IMG/VR virus record: IMGVR_UViG_2600255075_000001
Coordinates: 32,001 to 96,000 of that record
Length of the DNA: 64,000 nucleotides
From: a virus
Lineage: Duplodnaviria > Caudoviricetes
Direction: 5' to 3' (one strand)
A program made the position numbers and the translations under genes. Below the pieces are notes generated by a model that was not told the origin of the DNA, did no database searches, and saw nothing but the letters and a program-made list of their open reading frames with translations. This document shows, piece after piece, positions 4,894 to 53,241 of this stretch (positions are counted from its first letter, which is position 1; every line of letters starts with the position of its first letter).

Positions 4894-5190
4894 CTAATAA
4901 TCAAATCCCTGTTTTATCATTTCTTCCTTGATCTCCTTCAAAGTCTCAATTACAACATCTAACGAAGCTATGCGATCAAATAGCATGATTACATGAGCAT
5001 CATGGTTATCAAGAGATGTACCTACAACTTCCTTCCATTCCTCGCCTATTTCTCGGGGCTTTGATTGTATAAACGCTGCTCCATATGTTAATTTAGAACC
5101 ATCATCTTTTAATTCTGCTACGAAAATATCTCCATATCCAAATTGAAGATATTTTATATTGTTATCTGTTTTAATGGGCAAGAAGCTCAC
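4894..5190 (-). CDS. Hypothetical protein
   Basis: 98-aa ORF in the operon direction. Confidence 0.6.
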   Translation of the reverse strand: MSFLPIKTDNNIKYLQFGYGDIFVAELKDDGSKLTYGAAFIQSKPREIGEEWKEVVGTSLDNHDAHVIMLFDRIASLDVVIETLKEIKEEMIKQGFDY

Positions 5191-15963: not shown

Positions 15964-16479
15964 CTAATGAAAGGTTGTCTTTTTAATGCCAATAGGCGAG
16001 TATTCAAACCTATCATTACAAACATCCATGTCTTTACTTAGGTGAGTTTTTAAAAAGTCTCTAATAACTCTATCCTGGATGCCTGCGACGAAAGGATGTT
16101 TAGTGTAATCGGCCTCAGTAAAATATATATTCCTCAACTTTGAGTCAAATTTTTTGATTTTCGGTATATTGATAGCTAGTCGCTTGTCTACAAACAGAAA
16201 TCCCTCTTCTTCCGAAATCATACCTATCAAATCTAAATGCTTATCGTGATATTTATAAGTCTTAGTTATAGTATGAACCATTGTTTCCTTACCCGGTTTA
16301 TCAACAAACAAAATATCATTGATATCTATCCATATCAGAGCATTATCCTCAACAGTCATAATCGTTCTGGGCTTATACTCACTATTCACTTTCTCCGCTA
16401 TCTCCAATACATCTGACTCGCAGAGCAAAGATCCAACTTTATTAAACAATGCCTCCCTAACGAATTTGATAATGGACAT
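15964..16479 (-). CDS. LytTR DNA-binding protein without a receiver domain
   Basis: WIDINDILFVD...TMVHT...FLFVDKRLAINIPKIKKFD LytTR pattern; ATG at 16479 after AAAGGTGA. Confidence 0.8.
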   Translation of the reverse strand: MSIIKFVREALFNKVGSLLCESDVLEIAEKVNSEYKPRTIMTVEDNALIWIDINDILFVDKPGKETMVHTITKTYKYHDKHLDLIGMISEEEGFLFVDKRLAINIPKIKKFDSKLRNIYFTEADYTKHPFVAGIQDRVIRDFLKTHLSKDMDVCNDRFEYSPIGIKKTTFH

Positions 16480-16549
16480 ATTAATCACCTTTACTTTTTT
16501 AGTCCCCTTGATATTAGATACCAAGGGGCCAATTGGTTTTATAGCTTTT

Positions 16550-16666
16550 TCACTTTCTAACTTTTGGTTCATGGAACCAGATGTTAACTTTATCTACAGT
16601 ATTTTGCTCATTCTTTTTACCAATTTTCATGATTGCTTTCCCAAACCCTACGATAATTTTATTCAT
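16550..16666 (-). CDS. agrD: AgrD-like autoinducer peptide precursor (38 aa; absent from the ORF track)
   Basis: MNKIIVGFGKAIMKIGKKNEQNTVDKVNIWFHEPKVRK has an amphipathic leader and a WFHEP tail. Strong AAAGGAGG RBS; in an operon with agrB. Confidence 0.75.
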   Translation of the reverse strand: MNKIIVGFGKAIMKIGKKNEQNTVDKVNIWFHEPKVRK

Positions 16667-17381
16667 TTATAGGTCCTCCTTTCAAATTTTTCGATTCGAA
16701 TTTACTAATATGGTAGCTAGTTTCATCCGAATTTCTTCTATATGAAAAATACAGGAATAAGCAAAAGAGTGTAAAGATTGCTATAGAGTACATGTAATAG
16801 CTGCCGTACTTTACAGGGGTGTCTACTAAAGTATAACCTGCAGAAAGGATTAGAATAATGAACAACGATACATGAAAATAAATTGTGGTTTTTTTATCAA
16901 TAGATCTAAAACCAAAAGCAAATCCTTGTTTCATAATCATAATGTATACGGAAATTGTATAGGCAATAAGTGAACAAATTACTTGAGATATATCTGATTT
17001 ATAGTTCATCGGTAGTGTAGCCTCTTCAAATGTTGAGAAGAACCCAGAGCGAACACTTAGGTGAACATAAACGGTTTGTATTAAGACGTAAAACACATTT
17101 CCTGCGATAACAACCCAGGTTGAATAAAGCCAGTTTTTTTCTTTGAAAACGTTCCTAATTAGAAGTATCAATGCTCCTATTTGAACAATCGTCATCACTG
17201 CTAATAGATCATACTCATAAAGTAAGAATGAAAGCACGGACATTAGTAAGCTGGTGAATAAAATCTCTCTCTTGTAGTACTGTAATTTGAAACCAAAAAT
17301 AGTCAGTGATAATACGATTAACGCACTGAACTCCAAAAAGGAAAGGAATATGTACCTAGCCGCAATCAACATGATTGTCAT
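16659..17381 (-). CDS. Polytopic membrane protein resembling the AgrC sensor domain, with no kinase domain
   Basis: About 7 TM segments and a short cytoplasmic tail with no H-box or HATPase; lies between agrB and agrD. Confidence 0.7.
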   Translation of the reverse strand: MTIMLIAARYIFLSFLEFSALIVLSLTIFGFKLQYYKREILFTSLLMSVLSFLLYEYDLLAVMTIVQIGALILLIRNVFKEKNWLYSTWVVIAGNVFYVLIQTVYVHLSVRSGFFSTFEEATLPMNYKSDISQVICSLIAYTISVYIMIMKQGFAFGFRSIDKKTTIYFHVSLFIILILSAGYTLVDTPVKYGSYYMYSIAIFTLFCLFLYFSYRRNSDETSYHISKFESKNLKGGPINE

Positions 17382-17898
17382 GCACGCCCTTTGTAAAATA
17401 GATAAGGTGAATCGCCTGTATAAATATAGCGGCGCTAATGATAGCTGATCGATATATATATATATTGCCTGTTACTATAATGAGGCCGATTATCTTATAG
17501 AGTAAAAAGTTTTTGTTAAATGACATTCCCTTTCTAAAAGGTCCAAATAAAATAATAAGAAAGAACGATAAGCTGTCCATGAGCAACTTGTAATCATCAA
17601 CCGCATGCCCTATGTATGGTATTACAATAATAAGAGTAACAGTATATAGAACGCATAAGTCACTTGAAGGAAGGTGATGTCCTCCCAAAATAGCGCGCAT
17701 TACACCCAAAAGAACCATTCCGAGCAAAGTTTCAATTACCCTATTGGTGACTACTGATAAAATCAATACCAACAAAATTATCAACCCAAAATTTATTATC
17801 TTTTTTAAGCCTCGTTCTAATTCATCTTTTTTTAATTTATTTAAAGTATCCTTGTTTAGAATCCAATCAGTAAGTGTTTCTGCGAGGTAATAAACCAG
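17356..17898 (-). CDS. agrB: AgrB family peptide-processing membrane protease (probable CTG start)
   Basis: MRAILGGHHLPSSDLC carries the catalytic His and Cys; TM helices. Confidence 0.85.
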   Translation of the reverse strand: MVYYLAETLTDWILNKDTLNKLKKDELERGLKKIINFGLIILLVLILSVVTNRVIETLLGMVLLGVMRAILGGHHLPSSDLCVLYTVTLIIVIPYIGHAVDDYKLLMDSLSFFLIILFGPFRKGMSFNKNFLLYKIIGLIIVTGNIYIYRSAIISAAIFIQAIHLIYFTKGVHDNHVDCG

Positions 17899-18040
17899 TC
17901 GTCCACCACTCCTTCCATTATCCACCTTTAATATAGTTGTTCTCAGTAAATCGCACAAGAATTATTTTCCTATTACTAATATATCATTATAATATTTTAT
18001 TGTAAAGTTTTATTATTATGTTAAAAATAACCCGACAGGG

Positions 18041-19042
18041 TTATTGTTCATACACTTTTATGATCGTTTCAACATTCAAAAAATCCTCTTTAAGTCGGTG
18101 GTAGTTATATACCTCATAACCATTATTCATAACTTTTGATATACCAAACTTCTCACTTATTTCTTCATAATGATCTTTTTTAATTTCTCCATGCTTATCA
18201 TAAAAGCTTTTGGCCATATAGAGCATTCCAGAATTTCTTATTATATATGGCGACAAAACTCTTACCCAATCATCGTTATAACTTTTAACTGCCGCGATTC
18301 TCCGTTGAATCAAAAATTTATCTGCCTTACCATTAGTCTGACTGCGAGTAATAACATTCCTCAATACATAATCGCTCTGTTCTAAGTTAGCCTCTGCTGA
18401 CGATCTCATAGTGGGCTTTAGAATACCATTTTTTTTAATATAGGTCTTTTGATCAAGAGCTTTATACATTAAATTCATAAAATCTGAAGACACGTTGATA
18501 ACTCTCTCGTGTTCGCCGTCTGTTAAAGAAATCAGATTCTCACTCACGATGCTTTGACGCTTCAGATTTAGCAATTCATCGTAGCCACTTTTACCAAAAA
18601 CGCCTTCAAAGATTGCGATTATCGGAAATGCATCTTGAGCATTTACACACACACTAATCATACTATCAATTTCATCTTTTGTATAAAGCGACTTTTTAGA
18701 TATATCTATAAACTTTTTAAAATAATTATTTTCTGCCAGCACATCTAATGGATTAATATTTGTATCTCTCAGGTCCTGTTCTATTCCCCATCTTATATAG
18801 TTCTGGACCATATAAAAGTTCGAGCGGCTGGCATTCAGAGTTGATGGATTTAGGTAATGAAGTAAATTTTCAATCTGATCCAGCGTAAAATTATACAAAT
18901 CTTGCCCATATGTTTCTTCTATTGATTTGGCCCTTGAAAGAATTCTACGCGCTTGGAGTGAAGTAGTCTCTGGCAGAGAGTTTACGTATCTCATTTTTTG
19001 ATACTCGTTAAAATACCCGCCTTCATAAATTTTGTTTGACAT
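18041..19042 (-). CDS. Tyrosine-recombinase-fold repressor, MrpR (SPbeta YopR)-like
   Basis: Integrase-like fold lacking the RHRY tetrad; IRNSGMLY motif; follows the YopQ-like gene as in SPbeta. Confidence 0.7.
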   Translation of the reverse strand: MSNKIYEGGYFNEYQKMRYVNSLPETTSLQARRILSRAKSIEETYGQDLYNFTLDQIENLLHYLNPSTLNASRSNFYMVQNYIRWGIEQDLRDTNINPLDVLAENNYFKKFIDISKKSLYTKDEIDSMISVCVNAQDAFPIIAIFEGVFGKSGYDELLNLKRQSIVSENLISLTDGEHERVINVSSDFMNLMYKALDQKTYIKKNGILKPTMRSSAEANLEQSDYVLRNVITRSQTNGKADKFLIQRRIAAVKSYNDDWVRVLSPYIIRNSGMLYMAKSFYDKHGEIKKDHYEEISEKFGISKVMNNGYEVYNYHRLKEDFLNVETIIKVYEQ

Positions 19043-19062
19043 TAGCGATTACTCCCTCTAAT

Positions 19063-20358
19063 TCAAGATATCCAACTCTTAATATCAATTTTTTCGAAGT
19101 GATCTTTTACTAACTTTTGCAGACGAGACGAAGCTCCTTTGTTGTAAGTAACCACTTTATCTAGCTCTTTAACTTCTTCAATAATTGTCTCAATGACATT
19201 CTTTATTTTACTAAACGACACATCGTTTTCTTTAAATATTTTTGCAATAACAATGTACCCAATAAACATGCGCGGCTGCCTTAGAAGACTTGTTTTTGTA
19301 TTGAACTCATCATCAAAAACCCCTAGCAAATTGTTGAAGAAGTCTGTTAAATATACCCCAACTTCCTTTGCTTCGAAAGCAGTTTTTGGCTCAAATACCT
19401 GGTCGATTGCATTTGCTAAAATATCTGTAGTCGTGTAATGGCCTGCCAATTCGCTAATCTTTGAACCTGAGGCAATCTTTCCTTTGAGATCGGAATTGAT
19501 CTGTAATTGTTTAACGGCAACATAAGAAACTTTCTCTTGTTTGAGTTGCTCAAGTCGTTCAGTTTTAACTACGTTGATAGTGTTAATTTGACCAAAATAC
19601 TTTTTAGCGGTATCTGTGTCATAAACTCGTATACTCAATATTATATCTTGCTGCAGATCCGGATTAACAGATAAAGCCCTTACTGCTCCTTGAAGTCGGT
19701 GAAATCCATCAAGAATAGAGATGGTAGCTCCTTCCTTAATAGTCAAGACTTTAGATTTTGGATTGTATGTTATCGGATCGAAATCCTCAGAATAGACGTT
19801 TAGAGTAATCATATCAGGCAGATATGTTTCATTTAACATATGTTCTGCAATATCTTTTACGCTTTGCAAATTAACATCTGGTACAGGGACAACCCCATCT
19901 CTTCCCTTTTTATATTTGGCGCTTCTCTGTGTTTCGAAATCGTAAACAATAATCTTGTTATGGTACCATTTTACTGGCTCCGAAATTTTAATTGTAGTAA
20001 CAAAATTTTCATGATCAATTTGTAGCACACTGTTAATCGATATAGGAAGATTAACATCTTTAACTTCCTTGCCTGTATACTTCCTTGCTTCTGATATCTC
20101 ACCTTCAGTAAAATAATTTTCTGCTCTCACTTCGTCAGACCCATCAATTTTAAATACGGCCATTGAGATAAGACAGAGAACAGCGGTATCAATTTCTCCA
20201 AGTAAATTTTCGTTTTTAATAATTTCGTTAAAAAATCCAGAAGGTATGTCATATTCGGATAAATTTTTATTTACTTCCTCAATATTTTTTCTTTTATATT
20301 TTATTCTTTCTATTGCATTAGTCAGATTGCTTTCAAGTTCGCTACGGTCACGCAACAT
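19063..20358 (-). CDS. DndB/ParB-like DGQHR-family protein (SPbeta YopQ-like)
   Basis: ILDGFHR motif; synteny with the YopR-like gene. Confidence 0.75.
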   Translation of the reverse strand: MLRDRSELESNLTNAIERIKYKRKNIEEVNKNLSEYDIPSGFFNEIIKNENLLGEIDTAVLCLISMAVFKIDGSDEVRAENYFTEGEISEARKYTGKEVKDVNLPISINSVLQIDHENFVTTIKISEPVKWYHNKIIVYDFETQRSAKYKKGRDGVVPVPDVNLQSVKDIAEHMLNETYLPDMITLNVYSEDFDPITYNPKSKVLTIKEGATISILDGFHRLQGAVRALSVNPDLQQDIILSIRVYDTDTAKKYFGQINTINVVKTERLEQLKQEKVSYVAVKQLQINSDLKGKIASGSKISELAGHYTTTDILANAIDQVFEPKTAFEAKEVGVYLTDFFNNLLGVFDDEFNTKTSLLRQPRMFIGYIVIAKIFKENDVSFSKIKNVIETIIEEVKELDKVVTYNKGASSRLQKLVKDHFEKIDIKSWIS

Positions 20359-20420
20359 AATAAAAACTCCTTCCTTCATACCACATACTATAGTCATTAT
20401 ATCACAGATTGTTGACTATA

Positions 20421-22018: not shown

Positions 22019-22336
22019 CTACTGTTCAATTGGAATAATAAAACTACCCTGATCTCTAAACATCTGATCAATCTCATAAACAATTTTAGTGTTTCTCGAT
22101 ACTCGGCTCCAGTTTTGAACAAGTAACTCATTAATACCTTGGTTTTTCATTTCATCAAGAATATTCTCAAACCGATCACTCCGCTGGTTTGCCGAGATTA
22201 CATCTTTGAATACGGCAATGACCCGTTTGTCATTGTCCTCGGCAAACTGTTTGCATCCCACAATCTGTTTACCTAGTTTCTCTTCTGCTTGTTCTTGTGT
22301 TCCAACTCTTACATATATCATAACAGAATTACTCAC
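22019..22336 (-). CDS. Serine recombinase catalytic-domain-only protein with the nucleophile replaced
   Basis: IYVRVGT (canonical YxRVST) and SRVSRN motifs; no DNA-binding domain. Confidence 0.7.
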   Translation of the reverse strand: MSNSVMIYVRVGTQEQAEEKLGKQIVGCKQFAEDNDKRVIAVFKDVISANQRSDRFENILDEMKNQGINELLVQNWSRVSRNTKIVYEIDQMFRDQGSFIIPIEQ

Positions 22337-22391
22337 TATACACCTCTCCTTGTCCGATGAAATTGACCTTTTATCTCTATATCATAATGCT

Positions 22392-22625
22392 GCTTCAATC
22401 CACGCACTCTTGTAGAGTGCGGCATCAAATGAAGACTTTTCTGAATCTAAATGGAGATTTCAATCCACGCACCCGTAAGGGGTGCGACATTATATGATGC
22501 ATATGAGCCTAAAATGTATGAACGTATTTCAATCCACGCACCCGTAAGGGGTGCGACGTAACCAACACATTGTTTAAAAAACCAATACAGAGTATTTCAA
22601 TCCACGCACCCGTAAGGGGTGCGAC
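22392..22625 (-). CRISPR. Cas-less type I-C mini CRISPR array: 4 repeats, 3 spacers (33, 37 and 36 nt)
   Basis: Three identical 32-nt repeats GTCGCACCCCTTACGGGTGCGTGGATTGAAAT (22457, 22526, 22594) plus a variant terminal repeat at 22392-22423. Confidence 0.95.
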
Positions 22626-22800
22626 TCCGTTTCCCAACCAATATAGGGTCTAAAACGGCATTCTACTAATATTAATAAAGAGTTTAATTTTTATAATCCC
22701 TAGTTAAATTACCGTATAATGTTTAAACACCCATATATCTAGATGAAATTTGGTGCGAATCCCCCAGGGATATCATGCTCGCTTCCCATTCGCACTTCCT
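22626..22800 (-). promoter_or_regulatory. CRISPR leader
   Basis: AT-rich stretch plus GTGCGAATGGGAAGCGAGCATGATATCCCTGGGGGATTCGCAC, an inverted motif typical of Firmicutes I-C leaders. Confidence 0.7.
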
Positions 22801-22823
22801 TCCGTTATTTTTTAATATTAACC

Positions 22824-23117
22824 CTACTTACCGGCATACTTGCTGATTCTGACTTTGTGTGTATACTCATTATAAAGATAACCTCGTTCAGGAGATATAC
22901 CAATTAGTTCTGGACGCTCTGTGTACACCTCATCTAATGTTCTATCTTCTCTACCAACAGCAGACATGCTCTCTATCTCGATAGGGTACTTGGAAAATAA
23001 CGCTCTGACAATCTCTTCAGCGTGTTCTTTATTTTTTGCAAACACAATTCCTTCAAATTTTGATCCCGCTTTTCTACTATTAATTTTATGAAAATAACAG
23101 TGCACTGAATATATCAT
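22824..23117 (-). CDS. Hypothetical protein upstream of the CRISPR leader
   Basis: 97-aa ORF with an AAAGGAG RBS. Confidence 0.65.
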   Translation of the reverse strand: MIYSVHCYFHKINSRKAGSKFEGIVFAKNKEHAEEIVRALFSKYPIEIESMSAVGREDRTLDEVYTERPELIGISPERGYLYNEYTHKVRISKYAGK

Positions 23118-23171
23118 TAGTTTATAGTTCTCCTTTTGCCATTATCGAACAAGTAGATCATCTAATAAAAG

Positions 23172-23591
23172 TCAGTTTTCATCGACTGTACGATTCATAT
23201 ACAAGTCCATTCTAAGCATGTTGAAGATCGCCGAATCACACCTTTCTCCGCTGTATTTTCTGCAAAAACCAAGTAGCAGCGCTTCATCAAAAGTACTTCT
23301 CGACTCATTAAAGAACTTATTATCAACTACGGGGTAAAAAGCTGTTTCTTTACCTTTATTCAATCTCACTTCTGCTTCAACAATCGCTAAATCTTCACTA
23401 ATAATTGTTGTGTTAACTACGCTCCTATAGTCTTTTACAATTAGCTTCTCTATGGATTCCTCTTTCTCCCTTTGTTCCAAAAATGATTTTGCCATACCGT
23501 ATATACGAGATAACTGAAAGCGTCCAGTATCCTTCATTGCCAGCTCTTCAAAGAATTTAGGGATCTCTTCGAATGATAAGTCTTTTAACAT
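23172..23591 (-). CDS. Hypothetical protein
   Basis: 139-aa ORF with an AAGGAGGT RBS. Confidence 0.65.
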   Translation of the reverse strand: MLKDLSFEEIPKFFEELAMKDTGRFQLSRIYGMAKSFLEQREKEESIEKLIVKDYRSVVNTTIISEDLAIVEAEVRLNKGKETAFYPVVDNKFFNESRSTFDEALLLGFCRKYSGERCDSAIFNMLRMDLYMNRTVDEN

Positions 23592-31929: not shown

Positions 31930-32055
31930 GTAACTATCTCCCTATGTATAATCGTTTATTTTTACAGAACAGACATTGCTCTTCACCAAGTACTTAAAGC
32001 ATATTTCTTCTTCTTTATACAAGTCAATTCTTGTATAAAATATTCATTTCATTTT

Positions 32056-42630: not shown

Positions 42631-43138
42631 AATATTACATCTCCTTGCTATGTATTATTTTATTTTTAAATTCAAGATTTAGTTGCTGTTATATGATCAA
42701 TGCAAGGGATAATAGTAACATTTTATTTGGTATTAAAAGAATCGGCTGCAACGTATGAAGCTAAAGTCATTTTTAATAATTCCTTTGTTTTTTTGTCTGT
42801 CTCTTCTTTTATTAATTGTTCAAACTGTTTAATAATTTCATCTTCTTTTGTTTTCATCTAATCGCTCCTTATCGTATAACTGTATAACCGTTTTCTTCTG
42901 CCCATTCTTTAGCATTTTTTCTACTATTCAATACATTTATTACCCATCCACCAGCCTCGCACAAAGAGCCAGTTAGAGGATAAAATCTTAAAGCTTTTAT
43001 TTCCCATTTTCTATTCTTATTATTTAATGCAACTCGCCCATCGAACCTAATAGGTATATTTAATTCTTGATTCATCGTTTTATCCTCCTATGAAATTAAA
43101 ATTTCATTGCCTGATTAAATACAAGCACAGTATTCTAA

Positions 43139-44314: not shown

Positions 44315-44367
44315 ATTTATTCCTCCTATAAAATCGAAATTTCATTGCCTGATTAAAACGTTTTTTG

Positions 44368-50667: not shown

Positions 50668-53241
50668 ATCAGTCTAGATAAACAAATTTATCTATATAGT
50701 GTAGATACAAGCGCTTTTTATGACGAATTCGAATACAAAATACATAAAAAACTAAATAAATATTATATTCTAAAAAAGAGTATAAAAATCGCTCTCAATA
50801 CTGCAAAAAAAGATCAAGCAAAGAGAGTACTAAGTAAAATCGGTATCAGAATTAAGAAATATAAACTTCTCCTCGAAGAGAAATTGAGCAAAAACACTAA
50901 TGCTCGCAAATTACGCGAGGACCATCTTATTTCAAGTAAACTTGTCACCGCTTTTGAATCCACTCTTACCCGGACAATAAATGCTCAGATAAATTGTATC
51001 TGTGCCGATCTAATAATTGTGCGCACTTATTATCTTAAAGTGCTTGAAAATCTCATAACACAAGGATTTATATTTAAAAATGAAAAGTATGTATATTTAA
51101 CAGCATCAGCTGGTCAGATACGCACTAAAAAGACAGTATTTATCAAGGAGAGTTTATTACAAAAACACCGTGATACATTGACATGCGGTTTAACAGTTGA
51201 AAAAATAAATAGTCTCGGTGGAGTAAACATAAATAAATACCTTGCCTATCTTGCGCTATGCTTTAGTGCTTCAGATCCTTGGAAGGACTTCAATATTGAT
51301 CGAGCAATTGTAGTTGATGATATGGAAACCAATGTGCGAAGCGTTGTGGATTTTGTCGATGACAAGAGTTATGAGATTACGCGGCAACAGATGGATATAC
51401 CAATTAATCATACCGATGGTTGCGGAATGGTTCTGCCGAGAAAAAATAAAAAAAGCATGATGGTTCGGCTTCCCTGGGTTAAGGGGCTACTTGTCCCTTT
51501 CCCTTTTGATAAATTCATTAGAGAAAAAAGTAAAAGCTCAAAAGTAAAAGACATTTACGGCAAGGAGTACGATATTATAAAAGACCGAATTGAGGTCATC
51601 TTTACAAAGAGTCAATTCAAGATGTGGAAATACTATTCTTCGTGGGATGAATACAGAGCGTTCTACAAACTTCATGGTTGTCACGCAAGTAAGTGCAACG
51701 AAGAAGATGACGTTTTTAGAAAAGCTAAACTTAATTATCAAATGTTACAGACGCTTACCGACTTTTCAGATAACGAATTAATGTCTGTAAGTGCAAAGAC
51801 GATTGAGAAGATAAACAATATCGGCAGAGATCGCGATACCATGCTAAGTATTCTTGGGGTAAAAGAGAGCAATAACAAGGATTATTTCCAACAAGCGCTG
51901 GAGTTATATCCCGAATTACTTAACGATACATATAGCAGAGAAGTTCTAAAACAGGTCAAGAAAAGCATCGTCAAAGAAGCCAAATCAGGAAAAATTGACG
52001 TAGAAGGTTACTACACATTTGTATCTCCAGATCTTTATGCGTTCTGCGAGTATCTATTTCTAAATGACTTAACACCCGCGGGACTACTTGATAATGGCCA
52101 AGTTTACTGTAGTTTGTTTAAAGAATATTCAACTCTCGATTGTCTTAGGAGTCCTCATTTATATCGAGAGCACGCAGTGCGTCAGAATATTGTCGATAAA
52201 GAAAAAAGTCGATGGTTTGTTACTAAAGGAGTCTATACTAGTTGTCATGATCCTATAAGTAAACTTCTTCAGTTCGATGTGGATGGCGACAAGAGTCTTG
52301 TCTGTGCGGACAGCGTTATTATTGATGTAGCCAAGAGAAATATGAAAGAAATTGTTCCTTTGTATTACAATATGTCCAAAGCTGAGGCTCAAATGATAAC
52401 CGATGCCGAAGTTTATAATGGCTTAGCTGCCGCTTACACCGGCGGCAACATCGGGCTCTATAGCAACAATATCACTAAGATTTGGAACAGTGAAAATCCT
52501 AATCTGGACGTAATTAAGCTACTCTGTTGTGAAAATAACTTTGTGATTGATTATGCTAAAACATTATATAAACCAACAAGACCTGACAGTATGGCAAAAC
52601 TAATTAAAGGCTACACTAAGGCTAAAAATCCTAACTTCTTTATTTATGCAAAAGATAAATCTAAGGATAGTGTAGAAAATGCCAACGCTAGTGTAGTGAA
52701 TAGATTGCAAAAATTGATTCCTAATCCACGACTGAATTTTCGAGCTGCAAACTTAGGACAATTTACTTACAAAACGCTTTTAAGCGACACAAACAAATAC
52801 ATAGATGTATCGAAAGAAAATAATTTAATTGAGAAATTTAAAGAGCTTGATTTGAAACGAAGATTCTTTTCTCTTGTTGATGAAGAAGACCTATACAGCA
52901 AATCTTATCGGTATAAGGAAATCAGAGATATTCTACTCGATTATAATACAAATATTAATTATATTGTGGACGTATTAGTTGAGTATTTGTATGTGTATAA
53001 AAAAAGTAGCTATAAAACAACACTTTGGAGCAGTTTTGGAGATGTCATTGTTGAAAACATCAAAAGAAACGTGACTCACCCTTTAAAAGGCGGCTATATT
53101 TTGTGTAATGTATGTGGGGATAGGATTTTAGAAACAAGTAACCGAAGAAAATATTGTGAACGCTGCTGGAAAGAGGAACAAAAAAGGATAAAAAGAGAAA
53201 GTTGGCACAAGCATAAAAGTAAATATAGAAAAACCTGCTAG
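50668..53241 (+). CDS. yonO: YonO-like single-subunit DNA-dependent RNA polymerase; ATC start
   Basis: QFDVDGD (DxDGD), SAGQIRTKK, TDGCGM and LRSPHL motifs. The frame is open from ATC at 50668 (LDKQIYLYSVDTSAFY), 7 nt after GGAGGT. Confidence 0.9.
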   Translation: MSLDKQIYLYSVDTSAFYDEFEYKIHKKLNKYYILKKSIKIALNTAKKDQAKRVLSKIGIRIKKYKLLLEEKLSKNTNARKLREDHLISSKLVTAFESTLTRTINAQINCICADLIIVRTYYLKVLENLITQGFIFKNEKYVYLTASAGQIRTKKTVFIKESLLQKHRDTLTCGLTVEKINSLGGVNINKYLAYLALCFSASDPWKDFNIDRAIVVDDMETNVRSVVDFVDDKSYEITRQQMDIPINHTDGCGMVLPRKNKKSMMVRLPWVKGLLVPFPFDKFIREKSKSSKVKDIYGKEYDIIKDRIEVIFTKSQFKMWKYYSSWDEYRAFYKLHGCHASKCNEEDDVFRKAKLNYQMLQTLTDFSDNELMSVSAKTIEKINNIGRDRDTMLSILGVKESNNKDYFQQALELYPELLNDTYSREVLKQVKKSIVKEAKSGKIDVEGYYTFVSPDLYAFCEYLFLNDLTPAGLLDNGQVYCSLFKEYSTLDCLRSPHLYREHAVRQNIVDKEKSRWFVTKGVYTSCHDPISKLLQFDVDGDKSLVCADSVIIDVAKRNMKEIVPLYYNMSKAEAQMITDAEVYNGLAAAYTGGNIGLYSNNITKIWNSENPNLDVIKLLCCENNFVIDYAKTLYKPTRPDSMAKLIKGYTKAKNPNFFIYAKDKSKDSVENANASVVNRLQKLIPNPRLNFRAANLGQFTYKTLLSDTNKYIDVSKENNLIEKFKELDLKRRFFSLVDEEDLYSKSYRYKEIRDILLDYNTNINYIVDVLVEYLYVYKKSSYKTTLWSSFGDVIVENIKRNVTHPLKGGYILCNVCGDRILETSNRRKYCERCWKEEQKRIKRESWHKHKSKYRKTC

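Follow-up and report, generated by a model that had tools for sequence, protein, structure and literature searches.

A phage-borne type I-C mini-CRISPR array with a complete leader in the prophage of a Cas-less host

In a 64,000-nucleotide (nt) stretch of phage DNA (IMG/VR record IMGVR_UViG_2600255075_000001, positions 32,001 to 96,000; hereafter the window), a short CRISPR array and its leader follow a small open reading frame (ORF), ORF97. The array belongs to the type I-C family, its spacers match mobile genetic elements of the same genus, and it lies deep inside an SPbeta-like prophage of a host in which we found no CRISPR-associated (Cas) proteins. We consider it probable that the array comes from a type I-C locus of a congener and is carried as an exchangeable cassette of the phage early region, usable against competitors whenever the phage resides in a Cas-positive host.

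Results

Repeats, spacers and orientation of the array

Coordinates are positions in the window, and array, leader and ORF97 all lie on the minus strand. The comparison set comprised seven species genomes of the genus (one genome per species, numbered G000 to G006, the host of this prophage being G000) and 136 genomes of the family.

Array and leader together span 22392-22823: the leader measures 198 nt, and after it come three spacers set between three identical 32-nt repeats and a degenerate fourth one at the end. The four 32-nt repeat copies (22392-22423, 22457-22488, 22526-22557 and 22594-22625) follow each other at start-to-start distances of 65, 69 and 68 nt. A pattern derived from the repeat matched four times in the 64-kb window, with 0.00 matches expected from 100 shuffles; the array is real, far above chance expectation. 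Repeats 1-3 are identical, and the low-coordinate copy is 71% identical to them over a 34-nt alignment register. The spacers (36, 37 and 33 nt) are each unique and mutually unrelated. Tandem Repeats Finder reported nothing head-to-tail at this position, in keeping with a CRISPR array.

Read on the minus strand, the repeat starts with GTCGC (GTCGCAC) and ends with ATTGAAAT. Its 3' tail, GTGGATTGAAAT, shows no variation among the three full repeats and is shared by nearly all listed congener repeats; this tail becomes the handle of the CRISPR RNA (crRNA). We assigned the array to the minus strand because the degenerate copy then comes last, the 198-nt leader precedes the first repeat and this leader is homologous to native leaders. 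Hairpins are kept in all four repeats (−12.8 kcal/mol for the full repeat, z about −2.6; −11.8 kcal/mol for the degenerate one, z about −2.9). The parts of the locus, in the direction of the array, are as follows.

22626-22823, minus strand: CRISPR leader, 198 nt, from the ORF97 stop codon to the first repeat, recognised by homology to native leaders
22748-22801, minus strand: conserved leader element, an inverted repeat GTGCGAAT-N27-ATTCGCAC with arms at 22753-22760 and 22788-22795
22594-22625, minus strand: repeat 1, leader-proximal, GTCGCACCCCTTACGGGTGCGTGGATTGAAAT; 7-bp hairpin, −12.8 kcal/mol, none of 200 shuffles as stable; 1 nt from the repeat of G006
22558-22593, minus strand: spacer 1, 36 nt, newest by position; matches a plasmid-like contig of G003 (35/36)
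22526-22557, minus strand: repeat 2, same sequence as repeat 1
22489-22525, minus strand: spacer 2, 37 nt; matches the second prophage of the host, on contig C29 (30/37)
22457-22488, minus strand: repeat 3, same sequence as repeat 1
22424-22456, minus strand: spacer 3, 33 nt, oldest by position; matches the second prophage on C29 (30/33)
22392-22423, minus strand: degenerate terminal repeat, leader-distal, GCCGCACTCTACAAGAGTGCGTGGATTGAAGC; 8-bp hairpin retained, −11.8 kcal/mol

An initial annotation, made from the sequence alone, had described four repeats, three spacers and a leader, and the repeat spacing, the shuffle control and the leader homology confirm this description. At gathering thresholds, Rfam returned only a tRNA for the whole window; when 22300-22900 was scanned permissively, the outcome was two rows for eukaryotic snoRNAs at chance level and no CRISPR repeat family. 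When a k-mer cluster finder was run on the host genome, 13 of its 14 clusters were head-to-tail tandem repeats according to Tandem Repeats Finder, and unique spacers were found only in the array of the window.

The leader matches those of native type I-C loci

The phage leader aligns over its full length with the G006 leader, which lies 3' of cas2, as well as with a relic on the G003 chromosome (mean column identity 77%); it can also be aligned with the G004 leader. The inverted repeat is the best-conserved part of the leader, and in native loci it starts close to the end of cas2. Its core pattern was found in 14 of the 136 family genomes, the host genome included, and the element stands 5' of each of the five arrays of G002. 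From the element to the first repeat there are 126 nt in the phage, compared with 123-127 nt in 12 of 13 native leaders and 136 nt in the remaining one; these 13 are the leaders in which the first repeat was recognised by the repeat pattern, whereas six more copies of the element had no repeat recognisable by it within 260 nt, and one copy was masked. Across the family, type I-C leaders share the inverted repeat at a near-fixed distance (for example at loci L025, L026, L045, L046 and L049).

An RNA structure at the inverted repeat was considered and rejected: the element varies little, both sides changed in only one of eight pairs, and the 61-nt fold was no better than shuffles (z 0.26). We regard the inverted repeat, from its conservation pattern, as a sequence-conserved DNA site with no demonstrated RNA structure. 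The native leader-repeat junction is retained in the phage. Judged by alignment against functional loci, the phage leader is complete, and this anatomy makes spacer acquisition through the leader plausible.

Related type I-C loci in the genus

A relaxed repeat pattern matched four of the seven genus genomes: that of the host, G002 (97 repeats), G004 (50) and G006 (1 outside a masked stretch). The arrays of G002, G004 and G006, three of the six other species, flank a cas3-cas5-cas8c-cas7-cas4-cas1-cas2 operon, its seven genes having the sizes expected. Pfam assigned Cas3-like, Cas5d, Csd1 (Cas8c), Cas7, Cas4 and Cas1 in the G004 operon, Cas2 to a 99-amino-acid ORF of G002 and Csd1 to a 641-amino-acid ORF of G006. 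We place the array in the type I-C family because its repeat family and its leader accompany this type I-C gene set in congeners. The native repeat of G006 differs from the phage repeat at one position. Both the type I-C assignment and the presence of a true full-length leader, as initially annotated, are upheld by these repeats, operons and leader alignments. From the likeness of repeat and leader we infer that the array was picked up from a chromosomal type I-C locus within this genus.

At the cas2 position of G004 (L025 8265-8540) no ORF of at least 80 amino acids is listed, which may reflect a frameshift in the gene; the Cas2 ORFs of G002 and G006 are 99 amino acids long. In G006 the cas1 position is broken into several ORFs.

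G003 yielded no type I-C repeat arrays with the relaxed repeat pattern. Its chromosome keeps a relic consisting of a degraded leader and a single repeat (L087 ~4910-5140; G003:C1:2038909-2039140), and loss of the type I-C system is therefore ongoing within the genus.

Spacers match a plasmid-like element and a prophage in the same cell

Spacer 1 matches G003:C3:61340-61375 at 35 of 36 positions, with a 5'-TTC flank, and apart from the array itself this is its sole match in the 136 family genomes. The match falls in a TadE/G-like gene that belongs to a pilus-type operon; the contig, 82 kb long, also encodes a ParA-like protein, and by this gene content we take it to be a plasmid. The best match of spacer 1 in the host genome was at shuffle background, and no exact match was found in IMG/VR.

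The other two spacers match the second prophage of the host, that is, an element residing in the same cell. Spacer 2 matches C29:125367-125403 (30/37, 5'-TTC) in the ORF directly upstream of the tape-measure gene, and spacer 3 matches C29:137582-137614 (30/33, 5'-TTT) in a phrog_284 exonuclease gene. When these spacers were shuffled (60 times each) and compared with the host genome, the best scores were 27 and 25, respectively, and none of the 60 reached 30. Two of the three protospacers thus carry 5'-TTC, which is the protospacer adjacent motif of type I-C systems.

No spacer matched the prophage that carries it at up to seven mismatches outside the array, and the homologues of the two targeted genes in the carrier are only 29% and 46% identical at the protein level. 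A 43.9-kb IMG/VR record, IMGVR_UViG_2848028059_000001, holds degenerate patterns of spacers 2 and 3; its spacer-3 protospacer and flanks are the same as in the second prophage, and it offers no independent support.

Targeting was also detected in the opposite direction. Among 144 spacers (140 unique) extracted from the G002 and G004 arrays, one G002 spacer matches the array-bearing prophage (C30:39656-39689, 32/34, TTC flank); the lineage of this phage therefore meets Cas-positive hosts of the genus. Eight other G002 or G004 spacer matches to the host genome (17-21 nt, E 0.002-0.007) were taken as chance.

The array lies inside an SPbeta-like prophage

The host assembly (6.43 Mb in 32 contigs, 98.4% complete) has a GC content of 52.4%. 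The array is found inside a low-GC island of ~138 kb (~C30:17-155 kb, 33-40% GC), about 55 kb from the closest island edge. The island encodes a YonO homologue (50884-53241, plus strand) that is 54% identical to SPBc2 yonO over 96% of its length; YonO is the single-subunit RNA polymerase of SPbeta. Also encoded are an exonuclease, a large terminase, a portal protein, a DNA ligase, a methyltransferase and an MrpR-type repressor-like protein. By its gene content the island is an SPbeta-like prophage, and the initial placement of the array in a phage is borne out by the low GC together with the YonO, terminase and portal genes. The YonO homologue is also 58% identical to a protein of Clostridium phage D-1873, and it heads the plus-strand structural genes.

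The second prophage is likewise a low-GC island (~46 kb, C29 ~106-152 kb) with tape-measure, portal and terminase genes. The structural genes of the two prophages belong to the same PHROG families and stand in the same order; both prophages have 34-39% GC, far below the 52.4% of the host.

The 3 kb around the array matched none of 50,697 phage DNA records, and the array alone gave repeat-level or chance-level matches only, none at spacer level below E 1e-4. The repeat family occurs in IMG/VR on 15 stretches from 14 viral contigs, and the leader motif (at up to four mismatches) on none of these 15 stretches.

Array, leader and ORF97 form one cassette

Comparison with a sister prophage in G003 (on G003:C2) delimits a segment that has no counterpart there. 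Its flanks are 86% and 88% identical to the G003 prophage; homology ends at 22371/22372 and restarts at 23163/23164. The G003 slot is filled instead by a 232-amino-acid ORF with long hydrophobic stretches, membrane-like by eye only. Two more relatives in IMG/VR (135 and 165 kb) share a flanking gene of 139 amino acids and are without the array. The additional features are the following.

22372-23163, minus strand: cassette, 792 bp, comprising ORF97, leader and array; no counterpart in the G003 sister prophage
22824-23117, minus strand: ORF97, small protein, part of the cassette, directly upstream of the leader and on the same strand
22357-22374, no strand: palindrome copy ATGAAA-N6-TTTTAT at the array-distal border; the breakpoint 22371/22372 lies inside it
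23165-23182, no strand: palindrome copy ATAAAA-N6-TTTCAT at the ORF97-side border; the breakpoint 23163/23164 abuts it

The initial annotation had read the region as a single cassette bounded by palindromic sites at 22357 and 23165. The G003 homology indeed breaks inside or at the edge of both palindromes, in line with a single cassette. The palindromes themselves are real but imperfect, and they are two of 41 window copies of one intergenic motif; a generic inverted-repeat finder did not pick them up. This 18-bp motif, ATRAAA-N6-TTTYAT, has its 41 copies between 835 and 53851 (for example at 43090-43107 and 44328-44345), with 0.29 expected. All but one of the 41 are intergenic, and most of these abut the ribosome-binding site of the next minus-strand gene. 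The motif was counted 69 times in this prophage, never in the second prophage and four times in the other 6.2 Mb. The G003 prophage and the related IMG/VR prophages contain many copies. Gene cassettes may be exchanged by recombination between copies of this motif. The motif might serve the MrpR-like repressor as its operator, or else be a hot spot where cassettes are exchanged by recombination; MrpR is the subject of PMC10516654, which has passages on SPBRE.

Several neighbouring genes were noted. An MrpR-type protein (both MrpR domains, tyrosine-recombinase-like) lies beside a DndB-like protein at 18041-20397 (minus strand), 2-4 kb from the array. A 105-amino-acid ORF (22019-22336, minus strand), immediately downstream of the array, matches the N-terminus of serine resolvases only (profile 2-97 of 145) and appears truncated. 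Its counterpart in the G003 prophage has 138 amino acids. AgrB-like and LytTR-domain proteins, parts of peptide quorum sensing, are adjacent at 15964-17958 (minus strand), and the pair may be a phage communication module.

The host encodes no type I-C machinery

The absence of cas genes from the window, already recorded in the initial annotation, extends to the whole 98.4%-complete genome. Searches of the host genome gave no match for Cas1, Cas5d or Cas7 and only sub-threshold helicase matches for the Cas3 core. The Csd1 search was also empty, but the Csd1 control matched in no control genome; this gap is covered, because tblastn was run with the Cas proteins of congeners. With 15 Cas queries (ORF translations from the G006 and G004 operons), tblastn against the host genome returned one weak match (31% over 88 residues, E 0.004).

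These results bear on the initial proposal that the array hijacks the type I-C machinery of its host, to be dropped if the host lacked such a system: the cas searches of this host identified no cas genes, and for this lysogen the proposal fails. A check of the host for cas genes and matching repeats had been suggested; no type I-C cas genes were found in the host genome itself, whereas three of the six other species have matching repeats together with type I-C cas genes. Use of host machinery could be conceived only in such Cas-positive relatives.

The other CRISPR-like sequence of the host genome is a single mini-array in the second prophage (C29:144595-144692; L005 ~1497-1600). It has two diverged repeats of the same repeat family and one spacer, without a recognisable leader. 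The hairpin of its repeat 2 is preserved by a change on both sides. Its spacer gave no target at up to eight mismatches in the host genome or at up to three in the genus.

ORF97 is a small protein of a sparse family

ORF97 had no Pfam or PHROG match, nor did any PDB sequence match it at E values as high as 10. Its structure model is confident (pLDDT 93.3), and fold searches with it gave no clear match (best Foldseek E 0.12, best VIA Z 5.6); a protein atlas search returned nothing at 0.9 or above. Cas2 was considered as an identity for ORF97 and rejected. The family comprises nine proteins, ORF97 included, and ORF97 was not found in the other six genus genomes. Homologues occur in other Bacillota, near genes for relaxases, AbiEii and Schlafen-AlbA2 proteins, and these neighbourhoods suggest mobile-element cargo. 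Among 10 loci with ORF97 homologues in other genomes, not one has arrayed type I-C repeats or a copy of the leader motif at 6 kb or less, and the link between ORF97 and the array is therefore local to this phage. One of these loci (L080) has a lone repeat-like match with six mismatches, 2.4 kb away and on the other strand.

Explanations for a phage-borne array

The account that we judge probable is that an SPbeta-like temperate phage took a leader and an array from a chromosomal type I-C locus of this genus and carries them behind ORF97, within its early-gene region, as one cassette that can be exchanged. Once the phage resides in a Cas-positive host of the genus, transcription of the array would be followed by cutting at the repeat hairpins by host Cas5. 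The crRNAs would then enter host Cascade and direct Cas3 to the spacer-matched DNA, here that of a rival phage with the same structural type and of a plasmid, so that competitors of the resident prophage would be excluded. The distance of the leader element and the leader-repeat junction suggest that host Cas1-Cas2-Cas4 could, in principle, also extend the phage array.

A number of observations weigh against this account. There are no Cas proteins in the cell, and the array cannot act in the present lysogen. No spacer matches its target perfectly (1, 7 and 3 mismatches for spacers 1, 2 and 3), the third protospacer is flanked by TTT, and spacer 1 matches a plasmid-like element and no virus. 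None of the three spacers was found in the G002 and G004 arrays at up to three mismatches, the G006 array being masked. A consensus scan of the leader on the array strand detected no promoter-like site, and no terminator either. Lastly, the array is present in none of the three related prophages that share the flanking gene; it was therefore acquired recently or sporadically, and there is no conservation that would argue for selection.

A bolder version, which we entertain tentatively and with some doubt, holds that the phage array is competent for adaptation: in Cas-positive hosts Cas1-Cas2-Cas4 would insert new spacers beside the phage-borne leader, and the memory of rivals thus written would be packaged and delivered to each new lysogen. 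Recombination at the palindromic motif, of which a copy stands ahead of nearly every early gene, would have brought the array into the phage as a cassette. A self-updating array of this kind would turn silent in a Cas-less lineage such as the present host.

The array may instead be an inert passenger, its leader and repeats having been caught by illegitimate recombination in or near a host CRISPR locus and persisting without benefit, all the more now that cas has been lost from the host lineage. The lack of cas genes in the host, the absence of the array from all three related prophages and the imperfection of every spacer match would all be expected of such a passenger, as would the decay of the G003 chromosomal locus to a leader and one repeat, which documents CRISPR loss in the genus. 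Yet the three repeats are identical and all four hairpins are kept, the conserved leader element is preserved together with its spacing, and the captured piece has neat ends, one at the first conserved leader base and the other 20 nt beyond the end repeat. Moreover, the second prophage in the same cell also has a mini-array of the same repeat family. We think a passenger unlikely, though deserving of serious weight.

It is improbable that the locus serves as an anti-CRISPR decoy, in which the repeats, with or without ORF97 as an anti-CRISPR (Acr) protein, would titrate host Cas5, Cas7 and Cas8c and dilute phage-targeting crRNAs, much like RNA anti-CRISPRs (Racrs) and the AcrIC5-RacrIC1 operon. 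A Cas-positive congener does target this phage lineage, which means type I-C pressure, and the small ORF97 lies directly upstream on the same strand. The cited part of PMC10651486 places the repeat RacrIC1 downstream of an AcrIC5 homologue at a distance of 11 nt, and reports that interference was lowered by a non-targeting crRNA too. However, Racrs are solitary repeats, whereas here three full-length spacers with real targets and a 198-nt adaptation-type leader follow ORF97, and arrayed type I-C repeats or the leader motif accompany none of the 10 ORF97-homologue loci. Sequence and fold searches gave no Acr-like match for ORF97, a search result that does not exclude one.

We see very little room for a regulatory crRNA-like array (Cracr/crlRNA), whose spacers would pair partly with promoters of host cas or defence genes and silence them through Cascade, even if viral arrays of such a kind are described in part of 10.1101/2024.10.29.618823. 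When the four spacers of both arrays were compared with the type I-C loci of three congeners, the best ungapped matches covered 18-22 of 33-37 nt and no more than 11 of the 12 leading positions, which was judged unremarkable without a shuffled control; the spacers instead match mobile elements over nearly their full length. That the array is a remnant of a chromosomal CRISPR locus merely close to the prophage can be dismissed almost outright: the genus does have chromosomal type I-C loci and relics, but this array lies ~55 kb inside the low-GC island, both its flanks are 86-88% identical to a prophage of another species, and it is held between two copies of a motif seen 69 times in the prophage and four times in the other 6.2 Mb.

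Discussion

The array described here is a well-documented case within the known class of virus-borne mini-arrays, unusual for its full leader. That viral mini-arrays can use host Cas proteins against related viruses is an established concept, as set out in the cited passages of PMC11656645 and PMC6858448. The closest parallel is provided by the arrays of the Saccharolobus portogloboviruses SPV1 and SPV2 (Medvedeva et al. 2019), which have host-like leaders and of which one SPV1 spacer matches a plasmid (passages of PMC6858448). According to the same passages, those viruses also lack cas genes and carry one to three spacers between host-like repeats with a promoter-type leader; the spacers match a related virus and spare the carrier, and a host-Cas-dependent exclusion of competitors was proposed. 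The present case differs in being bacterial and type I-C, carried by a ~138-kb temperate SPbeta-like phage in a Cas-less host, with imperfect matches. Nor was reciprocal targeting found, the single spacer of the second prophage being without a match in the genus.

Bacteriophage mini-arrays and solitary repeat units (Faure et al. 2019, as cited in parts of PMC6858448 and PMC11656645) share with this locus a prophage array without cas genes and spacers against related phages; their repeats are of the type of the host, while those of the present array are of a type seen in three of the six other species of the host genus. They are described as leaderless in the cited part of PMC6858448, whereas here there is a full leader with a natively spaced element; the tables of the 2019 survey may list leader-bearing cases. 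The AcrIC5-RacrIC1 operon of a Bifidobacterium prophage, in the part of PMC10651486 cited above, resembles our locus in that, within a prophage, a small ORF is closely followed on its own strand by type I-C repeat sequence. There a solitary repeat follows the ORF after 11 nt, whereas here there are four repeats, three spacers and a 198-nt leader. Finally, the locus is like an orphan array in that an array is present and cas genes are absent from the genome. It differs in being prophage cargo and no leftover of a locus of the resident chromosome, of which the G003 relic is a true case.

The cited experimental support for virus-borne mini-arrays, in the passages referred to above, comes from archaeal viruses, and the present case is bacterial. 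The locus offers defined pieces: a complete leader and three spacers with identified targets, one of these targets being a prophage in the same cell. The cognate type I-C system is available in congeners, one of which is already immunised against this phage, and the cassette-free sister prophage is a natural control.

An array carried by a phage can outlive the CRISPR-Cas system of its host. Cas-less genomes may hold arrays that are unrelated to their own immunity, which matters for the interpretation of orphan arrays in genome surveys. If true, an adaptation-competent array of this kind would make the phage a mobile carrier of immune memory of rival phages and plasmids, one that updates itself.

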